This document shows positions 22,446 to 39,944 of a stretch of DNA of 64,000 nucleotides, one piece after another. Source of the stretch: a virus (taxonomy: Duplodnaviria; Caudoviricetes); IMG/VR virus record IMGVR_UViG_2562617114_000001, positions 1-64,000 of that record. One strand, written 5' to 3'. The position numbers and the translations under genes are program-made. The number at the start of each line of letters is the position of its first letter. Position 1 is the first letter of the stretch. Below the pieces are notes generated by a model. That model was given only the letters and a program-made list of their open reading frames with translations. It ran no database searches and was not told where the DNA came from.

Positions 22446-22481
22446 GGTGATCCCTGTGTTCTGCAGCATGTCTGCTTTCTC

Positions 22482-24101
22482 TTAATCTATTTTATGCCAA
22501 GTCGGCCAATCGTATCGGTCACGCTTCTTGCCGTTTTTGCTGACGGTGATGAAGCCGGTATTCACATTCGTCCCGACCGACGAGAACGAGTTAGGCGGGA
22601 GATCTTCCCACCGTGCGCCCATATCCTCCATCAGCTGGCGGAACGCGACCGACTTGTGTGTCTGTCGGAACTCGGTGCCGGCCGACATGATGGCGATCAA
22701 CTTCCCGTCGGGCTTGAGGAATTTCAGGGCGTGGACGACATGGTCAATGTCCCGCTCCCGATCGAAGGGTGGGTTCATGACCACCAGGTCGTACAGCCCG
22801 GTGGTCTCTGGCTCGATCGATATGAAGTCCGCATTGAAGACTCGGCCAAGCTTCCTGGCTTTCAGATCCGGGATCAGGTGCGGCTGGATCTCGATGCAGT
22901 CGACGACGTGGTCGACGCGGTACCGCTCCTGGTCCCAGCTCTTTTCGTAGTCGGGGTAGCACGCGACGGCGAGGTTGCCGGTACCCGCAGACGGCTCCAG
23001 GATCTTAAGGCGATCGCTCTCTTTCAAGCGGTGCCAGACGGGAGAGTTGCGGAGGATACGCTGCGCAGCGGCCGCCGGGGTAGGGTAGAAGCCGAAGTAG
23101 CGGGCAGGTGCCGTCTTCGCCTTCTCCGGTGAAAGCGGATCGTCGTCCACCTTGCGGCCATCGGCCAGCACTTCGCCATAGTATTCGCCGATCAGCTTGT
23201 TCACCTTGGCGACGAGATCCTTCCGCGTAAACCATAGGTGAGCGTTGCCGTTCTTGAAGATGCGGACATTGAAATACTCGGTCTCAACTTCGGTCTGGCG
23301 AGCGCCGGTCTGACCGTGGCGGGCGAGGTCGATCTCGCCGATGGTCTTAGTGAAGTAGTCGGCGGGCCGCTTCTGGCGCCGGGCTGCTTCATTTTCCTCG
23401 TCCTGCTTGCGAACCTCGTTCAGCTTGCCGTCAAGGATGGTGAACGTTCGCTCGATATCGATCAGCGTGGAGCGCTCGTCCTTGTGGGAGCTCCAGTTCC
23501 AACTGCCGTAGTCATTGAAGCAGCGGGTGAGGATCACGCGGGCTCCGACCTTGAACCCGTTGTGGGATCGGAAGCGACGGTCGAGCTTCGCGAAGGCGTT
23601 CGCCATGCCGCGCCGGAAGATCATGTCGGCGTCCATCATGAACTGCTCGAGCGTTGCGAGGACGTTTTCGACGGTCACCGGCGGCATGCCCTTGGCGGCC
23701 TGCTCCTCGGTGATCAACTGGCCGGGCTCCGTCGGCTCCTCGATGATGTGGGACATCTGTTCGCGCAGCTGGTCCTTCGCCTGTCGGTCCATCAGGTGCT
23801 CGAGCTCGGTGTGGCTGACCACCCATGCCCATACATTCAAGTCGATGATGTGCCGCTTCTCCCGCATGTAGTCGTCGAGGGGCGAGCGGCTGAGCGGGTG
23901 GAGCGCGCGCCGAGTGTCGACTTCATACGCCGCGTTGTAGGCGTTGGTGCGGGGGAAGGCGCGCTTCGCCATGTCGATTGCCGCGAGCTCAGCCTCGTGA
24001 GCCTCTTCGATCTTGGCGTGGGCGACTCCGAATAACTCGAGTGCCTTGTCCCGATAGGCGACGATCTGCTCGACCGTGTTGCGGGATACGATTGCGTTCA
24101 T
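22482..24101 (-). CDS. DUF4942 + class I SAM-dependent (N6-type) DNA methyltransferase
   Basis: FKNGNAHLWF; ILEPSAGTGNL; VVMNPPF. Confidence 0.88.
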   Translation of the reverse strand: MNAIVSRNTVEQIVAYRDKALELFGVAHAKIEEAHEAELAAIDMAKRAFPRTNAYNAAYEVDTRRALHPLSRSPLDDYMREKRHIIDLNVWAWVVSHTELEHLMDRQAKDQLREQMSHIIEEPTEPGQLITEEQAAKGMPPVTVENVLATLEQFMMDADMIFRRGMANAFAKLDRRFRSHNGFKVGARVILTRCFNDYGSWNWSSHKDERSTLIDIERTFTILDGKLNEVRKQDEENEAARRQKRPADYFTKTIGEIDLARHGQTGARQTEVETEYFNVRIFKNGNAHLWFTRKDLVAKVNKLIGEYYGEVLADGRKVDDDPLSPEKAKTAPARYFGFYPTPAAAAQRILRNSPVWHRLKESDRLKILEPSAGTGNLAVACYPDYEKSWDQERYRVDHVVDCIEIQPHLIPDLKARKLGRVFNADFISIEPETTGLYDLVVMNPPFDRERDIDHVVHALKFLKPDGKLIAIMSAGTEFRQTHKSVAFRQLMEDMGARWEDLPPNSFSSVGTNVNTGFITVSKNGKKRDRYDWPTWHKID

Positions 24102-24472
24102 GCTGGTCTCCGTTGATGCCATAGGCGGCGGGGGGGAATTGCTAAGATGTTAAGGCCTGGGGTTGAAAACCCATCCCTGGTCCATACCTCCTTGTGGCGC
24201 CAACAGAGACGAAATGATGTATCGTGGAACTTAGCCAGGTAAACCCAAGCCCCAGACAGGCGGCGGTAGTGGGGATCGACAGGTGGCTCCGGCCAGCCGA
24301 AGCCGGGCGGTGGTGGAAGTAGAAAGTGATTTACCGAACTCTCTGGGAGGCTCCGGAGACGGGGCCGCTTTAACTTATGGCCGTTTAAGTTGCGCTAGGT
24401 CGAAAATAATACTTGCAATTGGGAGTGCCTTTTCATTTCATCTCGCAATAATTGCCAATGAAGAGAAGCAGA

Positions 24473-25042
24473 ATGGAATCCCCGATCGCTTTGCCAAGCT
24501 TTGAGCAGCAGCTTGACGCCATGTTCGGCTGTTGCGATCCCGCCGGACGAACCATCGAAGACCCTGAACGCCACTTTAGCCCACAAAGTCTCCAGCGCCT
24601 GGACGAGGATACTGCGCCACTCATTAGACGCTATATGGAATTGGCATGTGATGGGTTGAGGCTTCCTGGTGTGTTGCACCGGACGCATCCTATGCTTTGG
24701 CTGATCGACAAACCAGGTGATGTCTGGACTGCAATAGAGGAGGTCATTGATGCGGAAACGGGTGCATACCTGTATCCTCTTTCTCGCAGCCAAAGTTCAA
24801 AGCCCGGGCATGTGCGCCTCGGACATCCGTCTTTAGTAATTGCCCGCAACAAGCATGCTCGGATCGGCGGAGAGATTAAGTATTCCGCTGCTGCAAATAA
24901 GTGGATCATATCAAATCGGTCCGGGAGGTATGGCACCCGCCCAAATCAAACGCAGGCTCATTTGGCTGCTGCAGCCAGTAGGTTTATGGAATTCGATATC
25001 GAACTCACCGTAAGCTTTTGGCAGCCAGGAAACTCACAATGA
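24473..25042 (+). CDS. Accessory (moron) protein 1, unknown; toxin-like motifs
   Basis: Opposite strand to neighbours, lower GC; GHPSL..ARIGGEI..ISNRSGRYG. Confidence 0.7.
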   Translation: MESPIALPSFEQQLDAMFGCCDPAGRTIEDPERHFSPQSLQRLDEDTAPLIRRYMELACDGLRLPGVLHRTHPMLWLIDKPGDVWTAIEEVIDAETGAYLYPLSRSQSSKPGHVRLGHPSLVIARNKHARIGGEIKYSAAANKWIISNRSGRYGTRPNQTQAHLAAAASRFMEFDIELTVSFWQPGNSQ

Positions 25043-25746
25043 TAATATTTTGGGATTTTGAACCATCCGAAATGCCTGCGCTTCAGGAAGTGATTACCTC
25101 GTCTGAAGGACTCAAAACTTTTATCTCTTCATTGAAGCATTTTCTGGCTGTGACCCCTCTCGATGGCGGAGCAGGAGAAGACCTGATCTATACTACTGGG
25201 ACAATGCTTACGAACGCTAACATTTGGTCGCGCCTACCGGCGGAGGATTTGGCCAACGCTTTAGCAGGCGAAGTCCCCATCGCTGCTGTAAAGTTGATCT
25301 TAGAACACGCATCGAGCGAATATCGACGCGCGGTGATCAGCGCGATGGAATCCACCACTCTATTGACTGAGTATAAGGAAATCTTAGATCGTGTGGAGGT
25401 CAACGAGCGATACAGTGCTCCCGAAGAATTTAAATTCCGGGGAAGTACACGCTTACCCGATCTTTCGCTCACGATGAGAAGTTATAAACCAAACTCGTTA
25501 CTTTTACGGTTTCACCATAAATTGCCTGAATCTAACTTGCGTTCTAACTTCGGTATTCACTTCCGTGCGTTAGGGCTTGAAAGCTCGGTTGCTATCTCGC
25601 TCGGTTTAGGAGTGACATGGGGCGTAACAATTAGACCAAATGCTGTGATAATGCATATCAATGGAAAGTATTTCGTTGAGATCGATGAAAGCGTCCTGCG
25701 GAAAGTAAGTAGCCAAAAAAAGGCGCCGATTTTCAGTCGGGATTGA
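25039..25746 (+). CDS. Accessory (moron) protein 2, unknown
   Basis: ATGA-coupled to protein 1, AT-rich codon usage. Confidence 0.7.
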   Translation: MIIFWDFEPSEMPALQEVITSSEGLKTFISSLKHFLAVTPLDGGAGEDLIYTTGTMLTNANIWSRLPAEDLANALAGEVPIAAVKLILEHASSEYRRAVISAMESTTLLTEYKEILDRVEVNERYSAPEEFKFRGSTRLPDLSLTMRSYKPNSLLLRFHHKLPESNLRSNFGIHFRALGLESSVAISLGLGVTWGVTIRPNAVIMHINGKYFVEIDESVLRKVSSQKKAPIFSRD

Positions 25747-25785
25747 TAGCTTTTACAGGTAAAGCTGCAGCAGTGCGGCACGAGA

Positions 25786-26031
25786 ATGACGTGGGCCGTT
25801 AGCATCCGAAATAACTCCTCTGGTGGTGAAGGCCCGATAAGAGATGACGAAGGGGTTAACCTCCCTGACCAAGAAGCTGTTCGGAGAGAGGTGGCGATGA
25901 TTGTGACTGGTCTTGCGCGAGATGAAATCCGGATGCAGCAGGCGGCCAATATCGTAGTCAACGTTCGAGATGAGGCCGACGCCAAGGTGTTCGTCGGCCA
26001 GTTGCAATACTCGGGTCGCTGGCAGGGGTAA
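25786..26031 (+). CDS. DUF6894-like protein
   Basis: DDEGVNLPDQEAVRREV...VRDEAD..VF. Confidence 0.65.
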   Translation: MTWAVSIRNNSSGGEGPIRDDEGVNLPDQEAVRREVAMIVTGLARDEIRMQQAANIVVNVRDEADAKVFVGQLQYSGRWQG

Positions 26032-26066
26032 TCCTCTTTCCGCAAATGCGCCCGTACCGTGCCCGG

Positions 26067-27227
26067 TCAAACCCGCATCGGCATCATGACGTAGGTGACG
26101 TCGTCATCCGCGCCGTCCTTGACGATAGCCGGGTCACCCGGGCCGCCGAGCTCGAGCATTGCGCCACCGTCCAGCTGCGCCAGGATCTCGAGCAGGTAAC
26201 CGGCGTTGAAGCCGATCTCGAGTGTGACGTCGTGATCGACGGTGATTTCGGTTGATGCGTGGCCGAAGTCCGGGTCGTAACAGGTGATGGCGATCTCGCC
26301 CGGTGCCAGGGTCAGCTTTGACGATCGGCTCTTCTCGGCCGAGATGGACGAGGCCTGCTTGAGCGCGTCGATGAAGGCTGCCGTCCGGACCGGAACCTTG
26401 TGCTGGTTCTGCGTCGGGATGACCCGCAGGTAGTTCGGGAACGTGCCGTCGACGACCTTTGACTCGAGCAGCTCATCCTCGCCGATGAGGAATGACACGC
26501 CGCTGTCGGTCACCGAGACCATGATATCGATCGGGCAATCCTTCCGCTTCAAGAGGCGCAGCAGCTCGCCAACCGTCTTCCGCGGGATTATCATGCCGTT
26601 CTCGATCGCTTCCGCACCAGCCGGCGCCGGGATCTCAAAGCGAGCCAGGCGGTGACCGTCGGTCGCAACAAACGCCAGCCGGTTGTCGTGGGCGAGGTGC
26701 ATGAAGACGCCGTTGAGGTAGTAGCGCGTCTCCTCTGTTGAGATAGCGAGCTGGATCTTCGACATGGCCTTCAGCAGTGTGGCCGCCGGCACCATGAAGC
26801 TGACGTTCGACTTGCCGAGAGCGGTGCGGAACGCAGCGTCTTCCGGAAAGTCCGACCGCTCGTGCTCCTGCTTCAGGGTGAGCTTCAACTTGCCGATCGA
26901 CACGGCCAGGCTATCACCGTCCAGGGTGAAGTTGATGTTGGCTGCGTCCTTCACCTTGTCCATGATGCCCTTCAGCTTGTGGGCATCAACGATCGCGAGG
27001 AAGTCGCTGTCGGCCTTACCGGCGACCAGCGTCGTGCTGTAGACGTCCATGTCCGTGCCGATGACGTTCACGCCCTTGCGGTTGGAGGTGATGAGCACTG
27101 TGTTCAGGACAGGGATGGTGTTCTTCTTCTCGACCACCTTGCAGGCATTGACCATGGCCTTTTTGAAAACCGAATAGTCAAGGGACGCCGTGGAAACAGA
27201 GGCGGCGATGTTGGCAAGTGCGTTCAT
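26067..27227 (-). CDS. dnaN: DNA polymerase III beta sliding clamp homologue
   Basis: KKNTIPVL, GTDMD, AISTEETRYYLNG, VATDGHRLA, DGTFPNYLRVIP, IGFNAGYL, YVMMPMRV. Confidence 0.95.
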   Translation of the reverse strand: MNALANIAASVSTASLDYSVFKKAMVNACKVVEKKNTIPVLNTVLITSNRKGVNVIGTDMDVYSTTLVAGKADSDFLAIVDAHKLKGIMDKVKDAANINFTLDGDSLAVSIGKLKLTLKQEHERSDFPEDAAFRTALGKSNVSFMVPAATLLKAMSKIQLAISTEETRYYLNGVFMHLAHDNRLAFVATDGHRLARFEIPAPAGAEAIENGMIIPRKTVGELLRLLKRKDCPIDIMVSVTDSGVSFLIGEDELLESKVVDGTFPNYLRVIPTQNQHKVPVRTAAFIDALKQASSISAEKSRSSKLTLAPGEIAITCYDPDFGHASTEITVDHDVTLEIGFNAGYLLEILAQLDGGAMLELGGPGDPAIVKDGADDDVTYVMMPMRV

Positions 27228-27274
27228 GGGTAGTCTCCGTGGTTCGCATGATTGCGGGGTGGTTGCCGGTTAAC

Positions 27275-27499
27275 CTACCGGCGGAGGATAGAGTAGGCGG
27301 TGGTTTCGGCCACAGCCCGGGGGTCGATGCGATCGGGCTCGATGGTGAGCCCGTCGGTAGCGTGCAGGGGATAGGAGTTGTGCGCCGTGAACCGCCTGCT
27401 TGCGGGGTCGAACGATATATACAGGGCTCCTGGCTTGATTCCGGGGCGAATGATGAGGCGGCCATCTCGCCGGACGTTCCAGTAGTCGAGGTCGATCAT
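27275..27499 (-). CDS. Small paralogue family member P1
   Basis: LYISFDPASRRF and C-terminal IDPRAVAETTAYSIL. Confidence 0.65.
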   Translation of the reverse strand: MIDLDYWNVRRDGRLIIRPGIKPGALYISFDPASRRFTAHNSYPLHATDGLTIEPDRIDPRAVAETTAYSILRR

Positions 27500-28233
27500 C
27501 CAAGGTATCCGGTGCGCGGGATCAGGTCGTACTTCTTGCCGATCTCATAGGTGATTTCGGTCGGCGTCTGCCCGGCTTCCATTGCAGCGGTGATGCGCTC
27601 CGGGTGGTCGGACACGAGGTCACCGTATCCCCATTGGCGCTCGGCTTCGGCCCGGCAAGCTGTGATGTATTCTTCCGGCGTCATCTTCTTGCGCTGGAAG
27701 TCTCGGTTGCTCGGGTCCGTCGTGCTCCCCTTGTCGGCGGCCACCATGGAGACGAAGATGGTGTGGATGTCAGGGTGGTAAGGCTCGCGGTTGTACTGGT
27801 TGTCTTCGGTGAGGAGCTTCCAGTCTAGCCGGCGAAGGACTTCCGGCACGAACTCCCAATCGTAGGCGTTCACGAACTCGTAGCCTTGCGACTCCGTGTG
27901 GGTATGCACCCGGAGCGCAATGTCGCCGGCTTGCACGGAGCAGTGGCGCATGGCGGACGAGCCGAGCCCTTCGAAGTAGTCCTTCAGCAGATCGTGGTCT
28001 CGGTTCTCGCACAACCATTCCCAGGCGCAGAGGGCGGCTTCCATCTGCAGGTGGGTGTAGGCGTCAGCATCGCTGAACCTCGCCTTCGGATCATCCTTCA
28101 CGCTGGCGAAGACCTCGATGCCGTTGGCGTCCTTACGGGGCTGCTTCTTGATGAAGACGCTCCACGATGTGGTGTCGCCGGCCAGGCTATCAATGTCAGC
28201 AGCGTGGGCATAGCCGATACGTTTGATGGGCAT
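27496..28233 (-). CDS. Acidic hypothetical protein
   Basis: AAAGGAAG RBS preceded by hairpin motif. Confidence 0.75.
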   Translation of the reverse strand: MPIKRIGYAHAADIDSLAGDTTSWSVFIKKQPRKDANGIEVFASVKDDPKARFSDADAYTHLQMEAALCAWEWLCENRDHDLLKDYFEGLGSSAMRHCSVQAGDIALRVHTHTESQGYEFVNAYDWEFVPEVLRRLDWKLLTEDNQYNREPYHPDIHTIFVSMVAADKGSTTDPSNRDFQRKKMTPEEYITACRAEAERQWGYGDLVSDHPERITAAMEAGQTPTEITYEIGKKYDLIPRTGYLG

Positions 28234-28264
28234 GGTCTCTTCCTTTCGCATGATTGCGGTGTGG

Positions 28265-28549: not shown

Positions 28550-28735
28550 CTATTTCGGCACCCGGATCTTCGCCACGCTGTAGGGCTCGGCCGCCATGGG
28601 GTTAAGGCGACCGTCTCCGTAGATGGTGTGGTCTTGGAGGTGGTTGCGGACCGCATAGACCGCCTGCTTCTTGGACAGCAGGGCATCGAACCGCACCCGG
28701 ATTGTGATTTCGTGAGTCGTGCTCTTCATGGTCAT
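28550..28735 (-). CDS. Hypothetical protein
   Basis: MTMKSTTHEITIRVRF; ATGA-coupled. Confidence 0.6.
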   Translation of the reverse strand: MTMKSTTHEITIRVRFDALLSKKQAVYAVRNHLQDHTIYGDGRLNPMAAEPYSVAKIRVPK

Positions 28736-29367
28736 GCCTCCTTGGTGCAGAAGGCCTTGGCCCGGTCGATCAGCTTCGCCAACTCTGCGGAGTGGTGCGT
28801 CTCGTTCTTGATCTCGGCGAGGGCAGCCAGTTCTTTCACCAGATGGCAGGCCTCCCAGCTGAAGGGCTCGCCGTCCTTGCGCATGTCCATCTCCACGCCA
28901 TCGCCGCCCCACTTGTCGTCGTCGTTGGGGTCGTCCTCGTCCGGGCCATAGACGATCATAGTTTGGTCGCCTTCGATGGCGTCATCGATCGAGTAGTTGA
29001 AGTCGTCGTGCCTCAAGGTCGTTGCCTTCGCGACGGCCTCGTCGAAGCTTGTTGCCTGCACTTCGGTGTCGCACTCACCGCGGAAGGTGGCGAACAGGCG
29101 GACGCCGTAGGTGCGGAGCACGGGCTCGTCGTCTTCGCCGTCGCTGTCCTCGTTCGCCTCGATCTCCGCCATGTTGATCGCGCTCTGCATCACGTTCCGT
29201 GCAGTGTCGGCATCGAGTTGGCAGCGGAGGCGAAGGAAGTGGAAGACGTTGGTGACCAGGTCTTTCGCCTTCGTCTGGTCGTCCTCGCCGTGCATGGGGT
29301 GGGACAGGGTGAAGGCGTCGATAGCCAGAGCTGCGTAGGATGCGCGGTCTGCATTGTCTGGTGTCAT
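28732..29367 (-). CDS. Acidic hypothetical protein
   Basis: AAAGGAG RBS preceded by hairpin motif. Confidence 0.75.
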   Translation of the reverse strand: MTPDNADRASYAALAIDAFTLSHPMHGEDDQTKAKDLVTNVFHFLRLRCQLDADTARNVMQSAINMAEIEANEDSDGEDDEPVLRTYGVRLFATFRGECDTEVQATSFDEAVAKATTLRHDDFNYSIDDAIEGDQTMIVYGPDEDDPNDDDKWGGDGVEMDMRKDGEPFSWEACHLVKELAALAEIKNETHHSAELAKLIDRAKAFCTKEA

Positions 29368-29435
29368 GGGGGTTCTCCTTTGTTGCCATAGCTGGCGGGG
29401 TGGACTCCGTCCGCATCCGGTCCCATAATCCCGGC

Positions 29436-29639
29436 ATGCCAGACATTGACTGGAATAAAGCGCCAAAGGCGGCGCGGTGGTGGGCGATGGACAAGGATGG
29501 CGAGGCACACTGGTTCTGCGCCCCGGATGTCGCTGCGTTCACAGACTTCTGGTTCAGCGAGCCTATGCTGGCACCGAAATTCGGCTACGATGGCGATTGG
29601 CGGCAAAGCCTAGTTGAGAGGCCAGCCGTCAAAAGCTGA
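29436..29639 (+). CDS. Small Trp-rich phage protein (antisense insertion)
   Basis: IDWNKAPKAARWWAMDKDGEAHWF...WRQSLVERP. Confidence 0.7.
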   Translation: MPDIDWNKAPKAARWWAMDKDGEAHWFCAPDVAAFTDFWFSEPMLAPKFGYDGDWRQSLVERPAVKS

Positions 29640-30795
29640 TGCTGATCGGCTCACCGAACGGCAGATCCGCCGTCAGCTCGTCGAACCTACGCGGGTCACC
29701 GTAGACTCCCCACAGGACCGGGATTTCCGGATCGTTGCCGAAGTCGTAGACCTCGAGGTCGGTCAGGTAGATGATGAACCGCGCTTCCGGGAACCGCTCC
29801 ATGATAACGTTGAAGGAGTCGCGGAAAGCGGTACCGCCCCCGCCGACCGGCCGGAGCACCAGCTCGTCGCCGTTCTCGAACTCCTCGATCGCCTGCACCT
29901 TGGCGTCGGCATAGATCACGGTCAGCTTGTCGATCGCGCCTTCCATGTATGCGCCGTTGATCTCCGCCGCGAAGTCCTTGCAAGGCTTGTCGTCGAAGAC
30001 GGAGCCGGAGGAATCCTGCACGATGATGCCATGGCTGACGCCGTCGCTGATCGTGCCGGGGGTGACGAAGCCGAGCGGCAACATGCGCCGGTTCGGTTTC
30101 GACCAGCTGAAATCCCGAGTCATGCTCTCGTCGATGAAGCGGCGGAGCATCGCGCGCCAGTCGACCTTGGGCCGGAGCAGCTCTTCCACGAGCTTGGCGA
30201 TGTTGGCGGGTAGTTTGCCAGCCTGCGCTCCCTTGGCGGCCATGGCGGCCTGCTGGATCTGCACGTTCATCTCCGCCTCGAGCTCGGCAATGGTCGACTG
30301 GTCATGTGGGGCGCAGCCGTCGAGGACACCGCCGCAACCGCCGCCGTCCATGCTGTTCTCGTCGGAGTCGTCGCCGTTGTTCTCGTCGTCGAGGATACGG
30401 TAGATTTCCTCCGCGGACAGGCCGGTGAAGCGCGGCTCGAGCAGCCCGCACTCCGGCATCTTGCCCACCTTGCACTCGACCAGCTCGCCGTTGATGGCGT
30501 AGTCGGCCGCCTTGTTCCACCGGCCGGGCTTGCGGTGCTGCCGGCGGGTGTGATGCTTCAGCGCATTGTGCATGACCTCGTGGGCCAGGACGAACACCAG
30601 CTCGTCCTTCTTCAGGCTCATGACGAACGGCGTGTGGTAGTAGAGGTGGCGGCCGTCGGTTGCCATCGTGTCGATGCGCGGGTCATCGGTCGCATCGATC
30701 TTCTTCAGCTGCAGCATGAGCACACCGAAGAATGGGTGGTCCCACAGCAGGCCGGTCTGCGCGGCGAGGATCTTGTCTTGGACGTTCATGGTCAT
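29629..30795 (-). CDS. Metallopeptidase-VWA protein (DUF2201-like)
   Basis: TMATDG, LAHEVMH (HExxH), WNKAADYAIN, MIDAS-like DSSGS, GGGT, YLTD. Confidence 0.9.
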   Translation of the reverse strand: MTMNVQDKILAAQTGLLWDHPFFGVLMLQLKKIDATDDPRIDTMATDGRHLYYHTPFVMSLKKDELVFVLAHEVMHNALKHHTRRQHRKPGRWNKAADYAINGELVECKVGKMPECGLLEPRFTGLSAEEIYRILDDENNGDDSDENSMDGGGCGGVLDGCAPHDQSTIAELEAEMNVQIQQAAMAAKGAQAGKLPANIAKLVEELLRPKVDWRAMLRRFIDESMTRDFSWSKPNRRMLPLGFVTPGTISDGVSHGIIVQDSSGSVFDDKPCKDFAAEINGAYMEGAIDKLTVIYADAKVQAIEEFENGDELVLRPVGGGGTAFRDSFNVIMERFPEARFIIYLTDLEVYDFGNDPEIPVLWGVYGDPRRFDELTADLPFGEPISISF

Positions 30796-31103: not shown

Positions 31104-31468
31104 GGGTGCATCGCGTTCCACGCATCTTTCATGTAGCCGACGGCGTCGGCGGCATGGGTGTCGGCTTGTCGAGTGGCCGCCGCCTTGGATGCGCGCTGCC
31201 AGATTGTCGGGCTTATCGAGGCTGCGACACATGCGGCCAGCGCCCTGGGACCGATCGCTTCCTTGCCGATGTCGATCTCATCCGGCTTTGCTGCTCGCCA
31301 TTTCTGCCATGGGCTGACCTTGCTGTAGCGGCGACGGTAATCTCCGTTGAAGCGGCGGTCGATCACGTCATACTCAAGCCGGATCTCCATCGTGCAGGCC
31401 TTGCTGGTCCGGTCGCGGATGAGCCAGTTGAAGGGCTTCACTTCTTTGACGCTGTAAGTGCGGGGCAC
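31100..31468 (-). CDS. Small paralogue family member P4
   Basis: IRLEYDVIDRRF and IGPRALAACVAASI. Confidence 0.65.
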   Translation of the reverse strand: MPRTYSVKEVKPFNWLIRDRTSKACTMEIRLEYDVIDRRFNGDYRRRYSKVSPWQKWRAAKPDEIDIGKEAIGPRALAACVAASISPTIWQRASKAAATRQADTHAADAVGYMKDAWNAMHP

Positions 31469-31470
31469 TG

Positions 31471-31866
31471 TTACCTCCGTGTGATTGCCAGTGCCGTCGC
31501 CCTTGCGATGTCGGCAGCCGAGAGTTTCGATTTCAGGATGTCGGTGACGTTGCCTTCCTGCGTGAGCGTGGCGTCACCTTCGATGAACATCTTGGGGTGA
31601 ATGCAGGGGCCGGCTTCAGCCTCGATGCCTTGGGATCGAAGGCCCATGCGGTTTCGCCGACCATCCAGCGAGGGCTTGCCGGTGTTGCTCGCCAGAAACT
31701 TGCGGGTCTTGGGGGTGTAGGTGAGAACCCAATGGGACATCTCACCATCGCCGCGGATGCCGAAGAAATACCAGCGCAGCTCTTGCGTGGTCGGCTTCCC
31801 GTCGAGGATGACTCGCGTCTCCTCCGGTGCGAAAGGCCCGAAGACTTTGCGAATGATCGGCATCAT
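31471..31866 (-). CDS. Small paralogue family member P5
   Basis: WVLTYTPKTRKF and ILKSKLSAADIARATALAI. Confidence 0.75.
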   Translation of the reverse strand: MMPIIRKVFGPFAPEETRVILDGKPTTQELRWYFFGIRGDGEMSHWVLTYTPKTRKFLASNTGKPSLDGRRNRMGLRSQGIEAEAGPCIHPKMFIEGDATLTQEGNVTDILKSKLSAADIARATALAITRR

Positions 31867-32201
31867 TTCCTCCCGTAGTTGAGGGCGGCTATTGTGGCCC
31901 GGGCGATACGCTCATCGCCCAGGCGGTCTCTTAGAATGTCGGTGACGCGGGCGCCTTCGATCACACCGCGCTGCGTTTCGGGCAGCATGTCGAGGCTGCC
32001 TTGCTCGGCCAGCCGCTTCGCATACTTGGACTCGTTGCCGCCGGTGTGGTGCTTCACCCGGAACTTGCGGGTGTCGAGGAAGAAGGTCAGCGTGTAGCCT
32101 CGCACGTCGCCGTCCATGAGCACGCAGGAGAAGAACCACTTGAAGCCGTAGCCTTTGATCTCCTCACGGTACGGGCCCCACACTGCCTTGAACTTAGCCA
32201 T
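31863..32201 (-). CDS. Small paralogue family member P6
   Basis: YTLTFFLDTRKF and ILRDRLGDERIARATIAAL. Confidence 0.75.
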   Translation of the reverse strand: MAKFKAVWGPYREEIKGYGFKWFFSCVLMDGDVRGYTLTFFLDTRKFRVKHHTGGNESKYAKRLAEQGSLDMLPETQRGVIEGARVTDILRDRLGDERIARATIAALNYGRK

Positions 32202-32562
32202 CCATGCGGCCTCCGCGGAGTGATATCGCCGTCACTTCAGCGATGTCTTCGGGTTTGAGCATCGACTTCATGGCGACAGCCACGCTGCCCTTTGGGAGCA
32301 TGTGGCGGAGCACTGCGATCGGGCGGTAGATGTCCGCCAGATCCTTCGCATGGATCTTGTCCCAATAGGTGACCGTCAGAGGATTCGACGTGAACTTCTT
32401 CGTCTCGAGGCTGAAGCACAGGTGCCACCGGCGGATCTCACCGGCGGGTGTGACGCCGATGAACTCCCACTTGCAAATCTGCACGATCCGATCGGGATAG
32501 ACGCCAGCGTCCGCCGTCTTGTAGGACAGCGGACCGGCGATCCAATGCACCCCCTTATCCAA
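32194..32562 (-). CDS. Small paralogue family member P7
   Basis: WHLCFSLETKKF and MKSMLKPEDIAEVTAISL. Confidence 0.75.
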   Translation of the reverse strand: MDKGVHWIAGPLSYKTADAGVYPDRIVQICKWEFIGVTPAGEIRRWHLCFSLETKKFTSNPLTVTYWDKIHAKDLADIYRPIAVLRHMLPKGSVAVAMKSMLKPEDIAEVTAISLRGGRMDG

Positions 32563-33562
32563 GGGTCACATCCTGGTTCCGCACCGCCCAATCCGTGAAG
32601 GTCTGAGTGTGCGACAGGCCCGGGTCACGACGGACGGCATCGACCGCCATCATGATCTCGAACTCACGGGCAGGAATGCGTCGGATGTAGGTCATGGCGT
32701 TCTCGAAGGTCTTGGCATCGGCGCGACGGCCCAGTGCTGCCGAGATGGCAAACCGTGCCGACGGATCATCCGGAAGCGGCGCGCTGTTCGGGTTGGCGAG
32801 GACCAGATCCAGCGACGGGAGCTTCTGATAGACGCGGATGAAGCCTTCCAGCTCGCCGGCAGCACCATCGCCGACCACACCGGAGACCAGCGACAAGCGC
32901 CGGCTCGAGTCCTTGCCGATGTATTTGGCCGCCTGTTCCCACGAGCGGGGGGTGGGGAAGGCGCGGTCATCGGAGGACTCCGGCATCTTGTGGATGAGGT
33001 GCGGCCGGAAGCGGAGGAAGGCAATCATGATCGGGTCCATGCCGATCTTGTTGAAGTGCTCCACATGCACGTTGTCGTGGCCGGCGCTTGTGTCCGCCTC
33101 GACATCGATATGAGCGAAGCGGTTGGCGAGCGCCGTCGGCATGCGCTGTGCTGCTGCGCGGTCCGTCTGGCGGTTACCAGCTGCAACCACGCGCCAGCCC
33201 TTGGGGAGCACGTAGTCGCCGACCTTGCGATCGAGGACCAGGCCGAACATGGCGGCCATCATCGACGGCGGCGCGGCGTTGAGCTCGTCGAGGAAGAGGA
33301 TGCCTTCCGGACCGTCGCGCTCCACCTGTGGAAACTCGTCGGGCACCTTCCATTTCGTGGTGTCGCCGGAGATATCGGGCAGACCCATGAGGGCGACCGA
33401 GTCACGGGTGGAAGCGCGGAAGTCGATCAGGTTCCAGCCGCGGCTATCCGCAATCTGCTGTGTTGCCTGCGATTTGCCGCAGCCGGGTGGGCCCCACATG
33501 AACGCCGGCGTGTCCTCATCGAGGTAGTCGTTCAGGTTCAGGGCAGCAGTTTTAATGTGCAT
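32555..33562 (-). CDS. MoxR-type AAA+ ATPase
   Basis: GPPGCGKS, ILFLDELN, VVAAGN, ALANRF, FPTPRSWE. Confidence 0.92.
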   Translation of the reverse strand: MHIKTAALNLNDYLDEDTPAFMWGPPGCGKSQATQQIADSRGWNLIDFRASTRDSVALMGLPDISGDTTKWKVPDEFPQVERDGPEGILFLDELNAAPPSMMAAMFGLVLDRKVGDYVLPKGWRVVAAGNRQTDRAAAQRMPTALANRFAHIDVEADTSAGHDNVHVEHFNKIGMDPIMIAFLRFRPHLIHKMPESSDDRAFPTPRSWEQAAKYIGKDSSRRLSLVSGVVGDGAAGELEGFIRVYQKLPSLDLVLANPNSAPLPDDPSARFAISAALGRRADAKTFENAMTYIRRIPAREFEIMMAVDAVRRDPGLSHTQTFTDWAVRNQDVTLG

Positions 33563-33942
33563 TGGTCGTCTCCTTGTTTGCCATATTCGGCTGGGTCGAT
33601 GGGAAGGCCGATCCTCAAGCGGGTGAGGTCGGCAATGTCGGTGCCGCGCACCATGGAGAAAGCGGCATCGGCAAGCTTGTCGCGCGGGAAGCGCGGGTAG
33701 GACAGTTGCGGGAAGGGTGAGAGGTCTTCCGGCAGGCGGTAGTCGTGGAAGTTGGCGCCATACTTCGGCGCTTTGGCTCCCCAATGATCACGGGCTCGCA
33801 TCTTGAACGTCTTGTCGCGTGGCCCGATCAGCGCCTCGTATCGAAGCGTCTTTCCTTCGTCGGAGCGGAAGGCGAACCAGAACTTGAGCCGTCCGAAAAC
33901 TACCTGCCGGGCGTAGGGTCCGATCAGGAGTCCGGTGGGCAT
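33538..33942 (-). CDS. Small paralogue family member P8
   Basis: YEALIGPRDKTF and FSMVRGTDIADLTRLRI. Confidence 0.65.
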   Translation of the reverse strand: MPTGLLIGPYARQVVFGRLKFWFAFRSDEGKTLRYEALIGPRDKTFKMRARDHWGAKAPKYGANFHDYRLPEDLSPFPQLSYPRFPRDKLADAAFSMVRGTDIADLTRLRIGLPIDPAEYGKQGDDQCTLKLLP

Positions 33943-33943
33943 G

Positions 33944-34306
33944 TCACTTCCAAATGATCTCATCCGGAAACAGGATGGCCGGGCCGCATATGGGCGGCAG
34001 CTCCTCCGGGTCCATCGCCGGGCGCTGGGTCATCATGTTGTTGCGGTAGATTTCGGTCGCCCTAACGTTGCGGATGTGGCGGCCGTTGATGTTGCTGGTC
34101 TCTCCGACGAACATGTCGCGGCGTTCGCCCTCGTAGAGCACGGCAACATGCTCGACGGGTTCATCGAATGCGTCGGGCAGAAGCCGCTTGATCCAAGTCG
34201 AGATTGGCTCCCTTGTGAAGCGTGGCTCCATGCGGATTTCTTTTGCTTCGCCGAGCGCCGGGATGAGCAAAGCCCGGGCAAACGTTCCTGTTCTGAGGCC
34301 GGTCAA
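33944..34306 (-). CDS. Hypothetical protein (DUF3846-like, uncertain)
   Basis: EHVAVLYEG...MFVGE...NVRATEIY...ICGPAILF; TTG start after AAAGGAG. Confidence 0.7.
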   Translation of the reverse strand: MTGLRTGTFARALLIPALGEAKEIRMEPRFTREPISTWIKRLLPDAFDEPVEHVAVLYEGERRDMFVGETSNINGRHIRNVRATEIYRNNMMTQRPAMDPEELPPICGPAILFPDEIIWK

Positions 34307-34333
34307 TGGGCTCTCCTTTGTGCATGATTGCGA

Positions 34334-34474: not shown

Positions 34475-35371
34475 TCAGGCGAGGAAGTCGGACACGCTGT
34501 CCAAGATGCGCTGCGCCTCGGCCGCGGTGTCCTTGCGGACGTTCGCGTCTTCCTTCAGGGCCGCGGCATCGTACTTCGTGAGCGCCTTCAGACGCTCGCC
34601 AAGGGCGTCCAGCTCGGGCGACCCGACGATGTTGAGCGACGGCATGACGCTCACCAGATCCGCGATGTTCTCGACGAGGCTGGAGCGGAAGCCGCCGGTG
34701 CGCTCGCCGGGGGTGAAGCTGTTGAGGCGGTCCACCATGCGCTCTGTCAGGGTGGCAACGCGCTGGTAGACGTCGCGGACCGCGTTCTCGGTCGCCTTCT
34801 GCAGCTGCTCCTCGATATCGGCGCGGATGAGGGCGGCGTGTGCCTCGCTCATGTCGACGCGGAAGTCCGTCGAGGTCGGCACGGGCAGGACCGAATAGAC
34901 GATGCCGAACTTCTCCCGGATCTCGTTGCTGGTCGGGTAGTCGGTCGCCTTGAACAGCTTGCCCATGCGCTTTTGCGCGTCGGTGACGTGCTGGTCGAAG
35001 TCGTTCACCAGCTTATCCACCTCGCGCTGGAACTTGGCGGACTGGACGCGCATCCACGCGGTGAAGGGGAGATAGCCGTCGGCGCTGATGATGCGGCCGC
35101 CGTCATTGAGCCACGGCAGGGTGCGCTCATAGAAGCCGTTGCGGGTTTCGCTGACGAGCGTTTGAATGCCGGCGAGCGCTTCCTTGCTCACCAGCAGCTT
35201 GTTGACGCGGGAGGCGTCGGATGCTGCGTTGTGGGAGTCGTTGAGCTCCTGCGTCACCTGCCGATCAAGCCGGCGGCCGGACCACTGCGAAATCGTCACG
35301 CTGACGATCATCGCACGGCTGGCGAGGGTGGAGGTGGAGGCAGAGAGGGTAGCTGGGGTCATGGAATTCAC
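34475..35371 (-). CDS. DUF3150-like helical protein
   Basis: SQWSGRRLD..VNKLL..TLPW..G.RI..F.ATDYPT..EIREKF pattern; family recalled from phages/ICEs. Confidence 0.75.
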   Translation of the reverse strand: MNSMTPATLSASTSTLASRAMIVSVTISQWSGRRLDRQVTQELNDSHNAASDASRVNKLLVSKEALAGIQTLVSETRNGFYERTLPWLNDGGRIISADGYLPFTAWMRVQSAKFQREVDKLVNDFDQHVTDAQKRMGKLFKATDYPTSNEIREKFGIVYSVLPVPTSTDFRVDMSEAHAALIRADIEEQLQKATENAVRDVYQRVATLTERMVDRLNSFTPGERTGGFRSSLVENIADLVSVMPSLNIVGSPELDALGERLKALTKYDAAALKEDANVRKDTAAEAQRILDSVSDFLA

Positions 35372-35442
35372 GTTCAGTCTCCTTTGGTTGCCATGAGTGG
35401 CGGGGGCGGTGGAATCTACACGCGGGATTGCGTGGACAGAAG

Positions 35443-35730
35443 TCAGGCCGCGAGTGATGCGGCCAAGCACCGCGCTCTCTCTTCCGGCGGGATCATCGAC
35501 AGGAATAGCTCGGCAAGCTTACGCGGGCGCGGCAGGCGCTTTGTGGTGCCGAACCCGTTGTGGATTTTAACTCCAGCCCGGAAGCGCCGGGAATCCGTCT
35601 GGAAAACGAGGTGATACTGGCGGCGGGGTTTGCCACAATCAAACCTGTAGACGATGCCTTGGCCTTCCAGATCCGGCGTTGTCAGGCGGCCGACATAGCG
35701 GAACACGGGGCGGATGCTATCGGCGTTCAT
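35443..35730 (-). CDS. Small paralogue family member P9
   Basis: YHLVFQTDSRRF and FLSMIPPEERARCLAASL; ATGA-coupled. Confidence 0.7.
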   Translation of the reverse strand: MNADSIRPVFRYVGRLTTPDLEGQGIVYRFDCGKPRRQYHLVFQTDSRRFRAGVKIHNGFGTTKRLPRPRKLAELFLSMIPPEERARCLAASLAA

Positions 35731-36539
35731 CCGACCGTGTTCCCGTCTTCGTCGAAGGTGAAGTCGGCAAGCGCCTCGTCCACCGCCTCGTCGGACGTAA
35801 GGTACTCGTGCTCCGCCTCCAGCTGGCGATAGATCCAGTCCATGAACGAGCGGAGGCATGCGGCGACCTCCTCCACGAAAGGGCCGTAAATGAGCCCATA
35901 TCGACCACATAGCGCGTTCCAGGTCATCACCTGCAATTGGTTGTCTTCGTCCAGCGAGTCAGGCGTGGGCAAGTCTGCGTCGATCGACACCGAATAGGCG
36001 TGGCAATAGCTGGAGGTGCCTTTCTCGATGGTCACCGTTGCGTCCGGGATGAGCGCGTTGCACCGTTCCGATATGTCGGCCAGGGAGAACGCAATCTCAT
36101 GCAAGCGCTCATCCGTCGGGGCGTGGCGTATGACGGCGGAGAGGGAGGCGAGCGGATTGCTCACCGGGCGCCAATCGCCAGTAAAGCACGCGCCATCGCC
36201 TTGGCTGGAGAAGCCCGTGAAATAGATTGCGGGCGAGGTGACCGTCTCGCCGTTTTGCAGGCGTTCGCGCTTGTCGTCGATCTCAATGCCCATCACACCG
36301 GCGATCAAGATGGCGTCGTCATAGATCGAGTCCCACCAGTCGTAATGCAGGCCCTCGGCGCGGTAGTCGTCGCGGGCTCGTTCTTTCGCGCGGGGTGACA
36401 GCTCCTTAAACGAAAACTCCGCCTTGTCGGCGGAGTCGTCGTCCTCAAAGTCGGTTGCGGGCTGGTTGACGTAAATGGGTGCACCTTCAGCTATTGCGCG
36501 GTTGACGGCGCGGGTAAGGGCGGCACGAGCGGCGTTCAT
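35727..36539 (-). CDS. Acidic protein of a plasmid/ICE family often labelled antitoxin of toxin-antitoxin stability system
   Basis: FKELSPRAKERARD..YDWWDSIYDD..IYFTGFSSQGDGACF..WIYRQLEAEHEYLTSDEAVDE. Confidence 0.75.
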   Translation of the reverse strand: MNAARAALTRAVNRAIAEGAPIYVNQPATDFEDDDSADKAEFSFKELSPRAKERARDDYRAEGLHYDWWDSIYDDAILIAGVMGIEIDDKRERLQNGETVTSPAIYFTGFSSQGDGACFTGDWRPVSNPLASLSAVIRHAPTDERLHEIAFSLADISERCNALIPDATVTIEKGTSSYCHAYSVSIDADLPTPDSLDEDNQLQVMTWNALCGRYGLIYGPFVEEVAACLRSFMDWIYRQLEAEHEYLTSDEAVDEALADFTFDEDGNTVG

Positions 36540-36871: not shown

Positions 36872-37101
36872 GCGGCGGTTCGCTCGCGAGAGGGCAGGAA
36901 GAGTTCCCACGCTTCCCGGGTGGAAAGATAGCGCTCATAGGCAGCCCGGAGCGGCGTGCCTGGCTCACCATGGGCGCGGGGCGTATAGCGGACGTCGCCA
37001 GCCCATTCTCGCGGGAAGGTGCGGCGGATCTCGTCCATCCATTCCTCATCGGCGGCAAGGTGAGCGGCGTATGCGGCGGCCATGGGGGGCAGTTCAGGCA
37101 T
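36868..37101 (-). CDS. Hypothetical protein
   Basis: AAGGAG RBS; 77 aa. Confidence 0.7.
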   Translation of the reverse strand: MPELPPMAAAYAAHLAADEEWMDEIRRTFPREWAGDVRYTPRAHGEPGTPLRAAYERYLSTREAWELFLPSRERTAA

Positions 37102-37252
37102 AGCGGGTCTCCTTCCGAGCCTCGCGGAGAATGCGGCAGATTTCCTCTTTCACCTCTGCATTGGTGGGCTCGCGGCCCAGGCGGGCGCTAAGGCGGTTCA
37201 AGATCGTGTTCTGGTTGTCATTCCGGAACGTGATGTTGATAGCGATCGGCAT
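37094..37252 (-). CDS. Small helical protein (52 aa, not in track)
   Basis: MPIAINITFRNDNQNTILNRLSARLGREPTNAEVKEEICRILREARKETRYA; hairpin motif upstream. Confidence 0.7.
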   Translation of the reverse strand: MPIAINITFRNDNQNTILNRLSARLGREPTNAEVKEEICRILREARKETRYA

Positions 37253-37416
37253 GAGATATCCCTCTGTGCATAATTGCGGGGTGTCGCGCGGCGCTGATAT
37301 CGCGGGCAGGCAGCGGCGCGCATAGTCCTGCCGGTGGAATGAGAGCGGGCTTTAACGGTTCCCGCGCATGGGGTGCCTCCGTGGTGCGGTTGATCGGCGG
37401 GCGGTGGATGACGTGC

Positions 37417-37674: not shown

Positions 37675-37850
37675 GACACAGGCTCCAAGGCAGCCAAGTC
37701 CCGTGCGGCGGCGATGGCGTCGGAGCGTTCCCTGTAGGTGTCGATAGGTCGGGCGAGACCGCGGCCGATCTTGACCGCCAGAACCCAAAGGGTGCCGTCT
37801 CGGCGGTGCTTGGGGAGGACGACGTAGCGGGAAGGGCTTAGCGTTTTCAT
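37671..37850 (-). CDS. Hypothetical 59-aa protein (not in track)
   Basis: MKTLSPSRYVVLPKHRRDGTLWVLAVK...; ATGA overlaps both ends. Confidence 0.6.
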   Translation of the reverse strand: MKTLSPSRYVVLPKHRRDGTLWVLAVKIGRGLARPIDTYRERSDAIAAARDLAALEPVS

Positions 37851-38011
37851 GCGGCGATCTCCGGAAGGCGGAGACGAGTGCCGTCAACCGAAAGCCAAAC
37901 GGGATTGCGCCGGGACGCGGGACGGATGTTGAGAAGGCCGAAAGCGATACAAAGGCGGCCTATCCGCACGAGGCGGACTCGGCCCACCTTGCGGGTGGAC
38001 ACGTTGAACAT
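37847..38011 (-). CDS. Hypothetical basic 54-aa protein (not in track)
   Basis: MFNVSTRKVGRVRLVRIGRLCIAF...; GGAG RBS plus hairpin motif. Confidence 0.6.
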   Translation of the reverse strand: MFNVSTRKVGRVRLVRIGRLCIAFGLLNIRPASRRNPVWLSVDGTRLRLPEIAA

Positions 38012-38050
38012 GCGGGAATCTCCATAGGTCGCATGATTGCGGGGGGAACG

Positions 38051-38075
38051 AAAAAAGCCGCCCGGAGGCGGCTTT
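38051..38075 (-). terminator. Intrinsic terminator
   Basis: AAGCCGCC-TCCG-GGCGGCTT-TTTT. Confidence 0.85.
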
Positions 38076-38099
38076 AGTTGTCGTAGAGGGGGAGAGCTT

Positions 38100-38336
38100 T
38101 TAGTTCAGCTTTGTCAGCACCGCGAGGGCGCTGACGGCCACGAAAAGCATGCTGCCAAGGCGGACGGTGAGCCGGAGCGTCACCGCGTCCAATGCAGCGG
38201 TCAGGTCTGACTTTGTTACGAGTTCTGCCATGATGAAATCCCGTGCGGCTTCGGCGTGGGCCTCGGCGAGTTTCTGCTCTACGCCTACGTCACGGAGGCG
38301 TTTCGCGTAACCCAGTGTATCAAAGGCAATTGCCAA
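38100..38336 (-). CDS. DUF1640/CCDC90-like coiled-coil membrane protein
   Basis: FDTLGYAKRLRDVG..QAE-like..LVTKSDL..C-terminal TM helix. Confidence 0.8.
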   Translation of the reverse strand: MAIAFDTLGYAKRLRDVGVEQKLAEAHAEAARDFIMAELVTKSDLTAALDAVTLRLTVRLGSMLFVAVSALAVLTKLN

Positions 38337-38383
38337 TTCAAATCTCCTTCATTGCATGATTGCGAGTTCGGCATGTCGCCGCG

Positions 38384-38445
38384 AAAAGGCGCACCACGGC
38401 GCCCTTGCGTAGGGACATGGAAAAGGGGAGGCTAATGCCTCCCCC
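38384..38445 (-). terminator. Two tandem intrinsic terminators
   Basis: GGGGAGGC-ATTA-GCCTCCCC-TTTT and GGGCGC-CGTG-GTGCGCC-TTTT. Confidence 0.8.
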
Positions 38446-38473
38446 CATCGATTACGGACCAACCGCGTATCTG

Positions 38474-39043
38474 TCAGGCGGCAATGTCCATTTCCGCCTG
38501 CTCCGGTGCGGCCGCCGGTGCCGCCTTGACGGCCTTCGCCTTGGCAGGCTTTTCCGCCTTGACCGGAGCGACGACGACATTCGGAGTCTTCGCCAGCGTC
38601 AAAGCTCCCTTGACCGCCTGCAGAATGCGAGGAGACGCGCCCTTTTCGGTCAGGGTTGAGACCACCTTTTCCAGATAGGCGACTTCATCGAATTCCTTTT
38701 CGGACTTCGCCTTGCCTGCCGAGCGTTCATAGTTGGCAGGTGCGATTTCCATCGCCTCATCCATCTTCGAAGCCTTCCCCTTGACGTAGGTGAAGACACT
38801 GGTTGCCTTGTCAAACGAGACCTTGCCGAAAGCCGTTGACCACGAAACGAGACCCTTGCGGTAGTTGACCGGAGTCACCGCGTAAAGCGCGTTGAGGTAT
38901 TTCGGATCGTTGTGCAATTCGACATGGTTCAATGCCGAATATGCAAGCTGGTGCTCGCGCTCCGAAAAGGTGGAAACCACCTTGCCGAAACCGTTGATTG
39001 CCGAATTGAGCTTGGAACCAGTGAGAACAACGAACTTAGCCAT
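38474..39043 (-). CDS. Conserved early phage protein with Ala/Lys/Pro-rich tail
   Basis: HQLAYSALNHVELHND..LNALY...LVSW..AFG resembles early genes of phiKMV/SP6-like phages (recalled, unverified). Confidence 0.75.
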   Translation of the reverse strand: MAKFVVLTGSKLNSAINGFGKVVSTFSEREHQLAYSALNHVELHNDPKYLNALYAVTPVNYRKGLVSWSTAFGKVSFDKATSVFTYVKGKASKMDEAMEIAPANYERSAGKAKSEKEFDEVAYLEKVVSTLTEKGASPRILQAVKGALTLAKTPNVVVAPVKAEKPAKAKAVKAAPAAAPEQAEMDIAA

Positions 39044-39132
39044 AACCATTTCTCCATTTGTGCCATGATTGGCGGGTTTGAAGCGATTGCTTCACTAAAG
39101 GCATGCTCGGAGACATGCCCTTAAAGCTGCAA

Positions 39133-39940: not shown

Positions 39941-39944
39941 ATGA

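Follow-up and report, generated by a model that had tools for sequence, protein, structure and literature searches.

The stretch analysed here (the window) comprises 64,000 nt of IMG/VR record IMGVR_UViG_2562617114_000001, located at C8:236691-300690 within a 7.05-Mb genome with a GC content of 0.62 and a 16S rRNA 3′ end of the Rhizobiales type; it lies entirely within a prophage. The element in question is a 12-nt hairpin motif recurring just upstream of the Shine-Dalgarno (SD) sequence in one leftward operon of this prophage. Recombination genes including RecT, an exonuclease, an SF1 helicase and a DEDD exonuclease run leftward at 1-12 kb, and a CI-type repressor gene (13191-13961) stands opposite cro-like and GcrA-like genes at 13-14.7 kb. 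A rightward replication operon (14.7-22 kb; HNH, primase, DnaB) is followed by a leftward accessory block (22-39 kb), which encodes a DUF4942 methyltransferase, a DnaN-like clamp, a DUF2201 VWA-metallopeptidase, a MoxR AAA ATPase and many unknown proteins. The rightward late operon (41-64 kb) carries gpA-type terminase, lambda-type portal, capsid and tail sheath genes. The phage family is a temperate, myovirus-type one of Rhizobiales.

A sequence-only reading of the window had listed 13 copies of the hairpin in the accessory block. All 13 12-mers were recovered on the minus strand, each followed by an SD-like GGAGA or GGGA and a start codon, and three further copies were found outside the block:

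39062-39073, minus: GCCA-ATCA-TGGC, heads the first gene of the block (189-191 aa, 38474-39043/39049)
38353-38364, minus: CGCA-ATCA-TGCA, with a C.A outer mismatch, before a 78-aa gene (38100-38336)
38030-38041, minus: CGCA-ATCA-TGCG, right behind a strong terminator (38075-38054), before the gene of a 54-aa basic protein (37847-38011)
37267-37278, minus: CGCA-ATTA-TGCA, before a 52-aa gene (37094-37252)
35390-35401, minus: GCCA-CTCA-TGGC, before a DUF3150-like gene (34475-35371); homology to relative G405 begins here, and the loop differs
34321-34332, minus: CGCA-ATCA-TGCA, right behind a terminator (34366-34339), before a 120-aa gene (33944-34306)
33580-33591, minus: GCCG-AATA-TGGC, with a G.U pair, within the upstream open reading frame (ORF), before the MoxR-type AAA ATPase gene (32555-33562)
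30804-30815, minus: CGCA-ACCA-TGCA, within the upstream ORF, before the DUF2201 VWA-metallopeptidase gene (29629-30795)
29385-29396, minus: GCCA-GCTA-TGGC, before a 211-aa gene (28732-29367)
28247-28258, minus: CGCA-ATCA-TGCG, before a 245-aa gene (27496-28233)
27245-27256, minus: CGCA-ATCA-TGCG, before the DnaN-like sliding clamp gene (26067-27227); homology to G405 begins here
24118-24129, minus: GCCG-CCTA-TGGC, before the DUF4942 methyltransferase gene (22482-24101); homology to G405 begins past the loop
22465-22476, minus: AGCA-GACA-TGCT, before a 149-aa helix-turn-helix (HTH) gene (21996-22445); conserved in G405
5458-5469, minus: extra copy, CGCA-AATA-TGCG, in full C-run/GGAGA context, before a small gene starting at about 5440
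15181-15192, plus: extra copy, GGCA-ACAA-TGCC, before a rightward 61-aa gene (15211-15393)
1795-1806, minus: possible, weaker extra copy, TCCA-ATTA-TGGA, behind a C-run, with an atypical SD context

Read 5′ to 3′, the full unit consists of a C-run, the 12-mer (N-N-C-R / N-N-Y-A / U-G-N-N), an A, an A/C-rich linker of 5-7 nt, GGAGA, about 7 nt and the start codon. Within the 12-mer, C3:G10, R4:U9 and the loop A8 are fixed, while pairs 1/12 and 2/11 covary. Class I sites (xGCA-AYYA-TGCx) have conserved loops; in class II sites (CCC-GCCR-NNYA-TGGC-A) the loop varies freely except for its last A. Five Watson-Crick stem versions occur: CGCA/TGCG, GCCA/TGGC, TGCA/TGCA, GGCA/TGCC and CTCA/TGAG. We agree with the sequence-only reading that nine of the 13 loops are ANYA and that two copies (33591 and 30815) are embedded in the upstream ORF. 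Other parts of it were narrowed. The G-U pairs it noted are genuine at GCCG/TGGC sites, whereas CGCA/TGCA contains a C.A mismatch, and where it placed several copies directly after intrinsic terminators, only those at 38041 and 34332, of the 13, come directly behind a strong one. Likewise, the array is dense at 22-39 kb as described but not confined there, given the copies at 5458-5469 (minus), 15181-15192 (plus) and, more weakly, 1795-1806 (minus). The least convincing of the 13 is 22465-22476, which lacks the C-run, has a 10-nt linker and takes a negative leave-one-out score against a position weight matrix (PWM) built from the sites; the best PWM score of the genome belongs to 5458-5469 (minus). 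An isolated GGCA-AYAA-TGCC copy in the rightward operon is found in several related proviruses, and G402, G404 and G405 share this site.

The concentration of the motif in the block was evident in each genome-wide count, and the positional enrichment that the sequence-only reading had proposed to look for was borne out by both PWM and pattern searches, the motif not being equally frequent elsewhere. The 12-mer CGCAATCATGC occurs five times in the window and 16 times across 7.05 Mb, and CGCANNYATGCR is present eight times in the window, the expectation per 64 kb being 0.84. When the PWM was run over the whole genome (7 Mb), the top seven matches, and 14 of the top 24, lay in the window, all on the minus strand. 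The combined pattern of motif, SD and start codon gave 486 matches genome-wide, and at this density (34 per Mb per strand) 0.6 would be expected in the 17-kb block, where about 13 were seen; in 20-kb bins the densest held 14 matches and every other bin at most four. A cmscan of the whole window against Rfam at E <= 1 returned 0 matches, and a literature search for the exact 12-mers returned one unrelated paper only. This is a real and statistically solid pattern, undescribed until now and common to the family.

A degenerate motif+GGAGA pattern gave at most three matches in each of 400 other genomes of the order, versus 10 in the present genome, and none of the 400 had a motif array. A general host signal is ruled out by this order-wide scan, in which the array was seen in the present genome only. 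At least 12 related proviruses and prophages (GC 0.48-0.64) of Ensifer, Brucella/Ochrobactrum (B. pecoris, B. tritici), Pseudochrobactrum, Ancylobacter and Peteryoungia carry such arrays, with about 10-20 copies each and all of them on the gene strand. Relatives retrieved via the MoxR protein carried 7-14 motif copies per 9-21 kb, all on the gene strand. A gene-blind 15-mer scan of IMG/VR yielded 114 loci; all loci with at least two copies encode proteins of the family, and 87 chance matches encode none. Nine full provirus records were fetched (GC 0.525-0.636), eight of them array-bearing and one, G409, array-poor. In seven of the eight (G401-G405, G407 and G408) some 10-20 copies lie on one strand of a single block of about 13-20 kb, and in G410 the copies are spread over about 39 kb. 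Among the cultured phages of a collection no close relative turned up: the DNA had no match, and MoxR ATPase identity stayed below 40%. The arrays are a trait of one phage family, not a host signal.

The sequence-only reading had pointed to compensatory swaps in the stem, and these were seen again in the relatives. We searched with the context fixed (C-run, C3, R4, A8, T9, G10, A/C13, SD and start) while allowing any base at positions 1, 2, 11 and 12, and obtained 119 distinct sites from 10 genomes. Pair 2/11 was G:C in 70, C:G in 45 and U:A in four of them, with no mismatch; pair 1/12 was Watson-Crick in 94 of the 119 (G:C, C:G or U:A) and C.A in 21. GCA and CCA half-sites were never mixed (0/119). 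In a covariation test on an alignment (A2) some rows of which fail the C-run filter of the 119-site tally, 90.8% of the cells were paired and the score was 0.441 against 0.156 +/- 0.014 for shuffled alignments (0 of 500 reaching it), with slid partners scoring at most 0.058, figures that are inflated by related copies. Orthologous sites also switch stem version: the site of the first gene is GCCA/TGGC, GGCA/TGCC or CGCA/TGCG depending on the genome. The predicted folding energy of the hairpin averages -2.5 kcal/mol, with a pair probability of 0.77 in a 90-nt context.

The hairpin keeps a narrow distance to the ribosome-binding site. It lies 5.9 +/- 1.2 nt from GGAG, which in turn lies 6.9 +/- 1.2 nt from the start codon, and the two spacings do not compensate each other (r = 0.09). 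The hairpin thus occupies about -29 to -18 relative to the start codon, its end falling 12-20 nt before it. An A directly follows GGAG at 100 of 109 module sites versus 45 of 156 host GGAG sites, a bias indicating that the SD belongs to the conserved module. Every array copy is on the strand of the gene that it precedes, and the plus-strand copy at 15181 stands before a rightward gene. Within the block, a crude gene caller placed the motif before nine of 13 uncoupled genes, and before more once three mis-called starts had been corrected by eye; gene 35727-36539 is a true exception. Among coupled genes, which overlap the previous stop, only two of 14 were preceded by the motif, both copies lying inside the upstream ORF. 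The caller was too noisy for a contrast of genes with and without hairpin over all genes, and revealed the CTCA/TGAG stem type. None of 12 uncoupled genes of the late operon was preceded by the motif, in keeping with the earlier impression that other operons lack it, an impression that the copy at 15181-15192 (plus) qualifies. A hairpin that covaries, is strand-specific, is tied to the SD and is concentrated in one operon is consistent with an expression signal read on the sense strand.

Several other signals could be set aside. The distance from the upstream stop to the motif varies from within the upstream ORF to more than 80 nt, which rules out a termination-reinitiation signal tied to that stop. 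The ATG of the motif itself lies 17-25 nt before the gene start in random frame (48/47/43), and the ends of the upstream ORFs that it would open are not tied to the gene start; a true start or leader peptide is thereby ruled out. Conservation upstream of the 12-mer falls to background by about -6 and the upstream DNA of orthologues is unrelated, so that a two-element promoter is excluded; a sigma-70 scan found nothing above shuffles and nothing at the motifs.

The motif copies also mark the places where close relatives part. G405 is the closest relative of the window (84-97% identity), and when the two are compared, blocks of homology terminate 3-7 nt before the 12-mer at 24129, 27256, 30815 and 35401. 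At base level, identity begins at the C-run at 27256 and only past the loop at 24129 and 35401, the DNA further upstream being unrelated. Breakpoints coincide with motif copies in both close pairs compared (the window with G405, and G402 with G404); at orthologous sites of these pairs the upstream 40 nt are either near-identical or random, and where they are random the loop often differs. A short recombination point for cassette shuffling, which the sequence-only reading had offered as its alternative, has direct comparative support, since at several sites the C-run or the interior of the 12-mer is where homology starts. Otherwise unrelated cassettes have only this module, about 25-30 nt long, in common, which suggests that recombination between its copies swaps cassettes at the module.

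We consider a role at the RNA level in the translation-initiation region, combined with a function as a seam for cassette exchange, to be the most likely reading, at roughly even odds (about 0.5). One Rhizobiales phage family would possess its own portable leader for translation initiation, of which the element would form the 5′ half. In the long leftward operon mRNA, a mini-hairpin of 4 bp and 4 nt would form just upstream of the GGAGA SD and stand alone, as the flanking C-run and A/C-rich linker cannot pair together. It would be read jointly with the SD by whatever occupies the SD, either the 30S platform with the 16S 3′ tail or an RNA-binding factor gating 30S access, and would thereby mark those cistrons of the operon that need de novo ribosome recruitment. 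In the genomic sequence, the 16S tail extends 5 nt past CCUCC, about the length of the linker, and as a speculation the hairpin could abut the end of an extended SD/anti-SD helix. Recombination between module copies would swap cassettes exactly there, plausibly via the phage RecT/exonuclease pair, which could use about 25 nt of homology. The anatomy, covariation, geometry, operon and family specificity and junction coincidence of the motif are observed here; that it acts as RNA, what reads it, which way it shifts translation and how the cassettes recombine are inferred.

Several observations weigh against this reading. The 4-bp stem is only marginally stable, and breaking the hairpin alters SD accessibility in silico very little (0.395 against 0.442 and 0.398), so that the simple idea of the hairpin exposing the SD as an insulator is unsupported. 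The sense strand has G.U at pair 4/9 in 23 cases and C.A at pair 1/12 in 21, which on the antisense strand become mirror images of each other, so that wobble asymmetry gives no choice of strand. Two copies sit right behind strong terminators, a layout that would also fit a compact promoter. The array-poor G409 (L151-L153, block at about 29-47 kb) has the same core genes and only three hairpins; its MoxR and DUF3150-like leaders are C-rich with an SD and without hairpin, and its DUF2201 leader is AT-rich with an SD and without hairpin. Judging from these hairpin-less leaders on orthologous genes, the hairpin appears dispensable for translation as such. Finally, no RNA-binding or coat-like reader emerged when conserved unknown proteins were searched by sequence in Pfam, PHROG and PDB, nor from a single AlphaFold model or a single atlas search.

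Many small phage proteins are without assignment in Pfam, PHROG, PDB, the atlas and one fold search, and the gene content of array-rich genomes compared with G409 yielded no consistent reader candidate. The first block gene (189-191 aa, 38474-39049) is present in every family member examined, and the AlphaFold model of its product (pLDDT 72) shows helices and a disordered, Lys/Ala/Pro-rich C-terminal tail that recalls nucleic-acid-binding tails of the histone-H1-like kind; as an RNA binder it was not retained, with no fold match in PDB and unnamed viral clusters only in the atlas search. A NusG/RfaH-like reader was likewise rejected, the prophage having no NGN-domain gene and the host encoding NusG and one paralogue elsewhere. 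Directly upstream of the isolated plus-strand motif copy, a 162-aa protein (14664-15152, plus), present in seven of nine fetched relatives, has a C-terminal stretch with a weak Rmf/CrpP-like match (E = 0.0027, below the family cut-off).

The idea put forward by the sequence-only reading, a regulon-wide translational operator or processing signal read by a phage protein, is supported in part. The covarying, strand-specific, SD-tied hairpin of one operon agrees with it, but the searches above gave no phage protein that would read it. Small RNA signals at initiation regions are familiar from the MS2 coat-protein hairpin and from T4 RegA and RegB, the latter two acting on many early mRNAs. That an undiscovered protein of this temperate dsDNA phage reads the hairpin as a translational operator for a whole regulon, in the manner of RegA or MS2, is a possibility that we hold only tentatively. 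The likeness to MS2 in particular, drawn earlier from the ANYA loop class, proved superficial. AUCA and AUUA loops occur both in MS2 operators and here, yet the present hairpin has a 4-bp stem without the bulged A, lies upstream of the SD and excludes the start codon, and belongs to a temperate dsDNA phage; its loop opens with A in 76% of sites and is variable in class II. It also differs from the split ribosome site of T4 gene 38, where a hairpin lies between SD and start and bridges them, whereas the present one lies 5-7 nt upstream of an SD with ordinary SD-start spacing.

That the motif might be a recombination site only, a DNA-level crossover (single-strand hairpin or short homology) with no role in expression, its nearness to the SD reflecting tight cassette packing, seems to us doubtful, although several observations fit it. 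Close relatives become homologous at the motif or within it, a change of upstream neighbour often goes with a change of loop, and the same loop variants appear at different genes and in different genomes. ATG and C3 are invariant, as a common core for crossovers would be, the phage encodes RecT, an exonuclease and an HNH nuclease, and loss of the hairpin is tolerated in G409. However, packing leaves unexplained a hairpin-SD spacing as tight as the SD-start spacing, and neither the conserved A after GGAG, the retention of the motif inside upstream ORFs, nor its co-orientation with genes on both strands follows from a crossover site. Moreover, 12 nt is far below the size of any known structure-specific recombination site, and neither an integron-type integrase nor an HUH enzyme was seen in the window. 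Such a site would be a miniature analogue of integron attC or of the shuffling known for promoter-early stem-loops (PeSLs), the mobile regulatory cassettes of T4-type phages (Arbiol et al. 2010, PMC2839356; Comeau et al. 2014, PMC4122927). PeSLs resemble the present element as short conserved expression signals repeated between non-essential genes of a plastic region, where recombination between copies accounts for insertions, deletions and replacements among close relatives (PMC2839356), and the coincidence with breakpoints is found here too. They differ in combining a sigma-70-like promoter with terminator stem-loops over about 50-70 bp, as against a 12-nt covarying hairpin fused to an SD; no sigma-70-like promoter accompanies the present copies, and a terminator accompanies only two of the 13.

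An array of DNA operators, at which a phage protein such as an end-of-block HTH protein binds the dsDNA quasi-palindrome of each copy and blocks transcription, is improbable. The 4-N4-4 palindrome geometry does resemble the ACAA-N4-TTGT operators of Rhizobium phage 16-3. The block ends in two coupled HTH genes (21739-22445, minus) of 149 and 86 aa, whose products may regulate it. The 149-aa protein has a C-terminal XRE-like HTH and is universal in the family; the 86-aa Cro-like HTH gene (21739-21999) is present in eight of eight array-rich genomes and absent from array-poor G409. In an array-rich Ancylobacter provirus, however, the 86-aa gene is found neither beside the 149-aa gene nor elsewhere in the examined 20-kb locus, and this protein was accordingly dropped as a reader. 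The model for this explanation is provided by mycobacteriophage stoperators or the phiC31 conserved inverted repeats (CIRs); cluster A stoperators are asymmetric dsDNA sites, matched to the operator at the early promoter, found in both genome arms and not tied to the SD (PMC9283540, PMC6550527). Like them, the present sites are multi-copy, 12-14 bp long, placed in short intergenic spaces and in one orientation relative to transcription, but they covary as a hairpin and are concentrated in one operon, and no copy was found on either strand in the promoter/operator regions at 39.1-41 kb or 12-14.6 kb. A protein tolerating both GCA and CCA half-sites would also yield mixed sites, which do not occur; five different Watson-Crick stem versions and a fixed SD spacing, which a roadblock would not need, argue in the same direction.

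We give similarly little credence to a transcription signal, in which the C-run and 12-mer would form a compact single-element promoter for a phage-modified RNA polymerase, comparable to T4-late or N4-hairpin promoters, or an ops-like hairpin in the non-template strand recruiting an elongation or antitermination factor. The ops element is likewise 12 nt long and strand-specific. Two motif copies lie within 12 nt of strong terminators (38075-38054 and 34366-34339, both inside the leftward operon), and the genes downstream need re-initiation or antitermination; the phage also carries its own sliding clamp and a GcrA-like factor. The order of terminator and then signal recalls PeSLs (PMC2839356). 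On the other hand, no gene for a phage RNA polymerase, a sigma factor or a NusG-like protein was detected in the window, and a variable linker of 2-8 nt to GGAGA together with the tie to the SD speaks against a fixed transcription-start geometry. There is no -35-like conservation, and absence of the motif before coupled genes is a translational rather than a transcriptional distinction. A long non-coding leader (39100-39950, minus) separates the presumed leftward promoter region from the first motif and gene; this leader, which is structured, and the internal terminators suggest that the block is a single operon dependent on antitermination and read through in this way. A lambda-type nut site occurs once per operon, close to the promoter, and sets boxA next to a boxB hairpin with a GNRA-like pentaloop; the present element is no such site, with at least 13 copies per operon, an NNYA tetraloop and no boxA beside the copies, and an RfaH/ops system is not supported in a prophage without an NGN-domain gene. 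Each of the three rivals (pure recombination site, DNA operator, compact transcription signal) explains part of the data and fails on spacing, covariation or the promoter-region comparison.

An integron-like phage cassette array, in which the 12-nt hairpin of each ribosome-binding leader would be a minimal site of structure-specific recombination that a phage enzyme cuts between its loop and its 3′ arm and rejoins there, is very unlikely. It shares with attC the strand-specific cassette arrays, the imperfect palindromes, the structure conserved above sequence and the junctions inside the site, but attC sites are 57-141 nt long, lie 3′ of cassettes, carry R″, L″, L′ and R′ boxes and need an adjacent IntI, whereas the present element has 12 nt, lies 5′ of genes and has no integrase domain among the window proteins scanned. 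If it were true, captured cassettes would arrive with a working translation start.

Some neighbouring features of the block deserve mention. A low-GC segment (24137-26064, GC 0.51), antisense within the leftward block, contains two overlapping plus-strand ORFs (24452-25042 and 25018-25746), neither with a Pfam match. Its limits are the stop codon of the clamp gene and the motif copy of the methyltransferase gene, the same slot in G405 holds unrelated DNA, and the segment may be a defence or toxin cassette. The phage-encoded sliding clamp (26067-27227, minus) is a three-domain, DnaN-like protein; the window showed genes for primase, DnaB and the DEDD exonuclease but none for a DNA polymerase. 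Around the MoxR gene lies a run of small (103-134 aa), translationally coupled unknown genes (30792-34306, minus), including at least one paralogue pair (31471-31866 and 31863-32201).

A testable signal of only 12 nt, with clear covariation and a fixed geometry, controls or accompanies about a dozen or more genes per phage across a Rhizobiales prophage family that includes prophages of Brucella/Ochrobactrum and of legume symbionts, and G409 offers a natural hairpin-less comparator. The motif delimits accessory cassettes that are nearly all of unknown function, and these are candidates for host take-over or anti-defence genes. Through its coincidence with junctions it joins the T4 PeSLs as a second and independent case in which expression signals are the seams for the shuffling of accessory genes, and it opens this process to experiment. 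If the RNA-level role is true, the element would represent a new class of translation-initiation element or a regulon-wide operator in temperate dsDNA phages.

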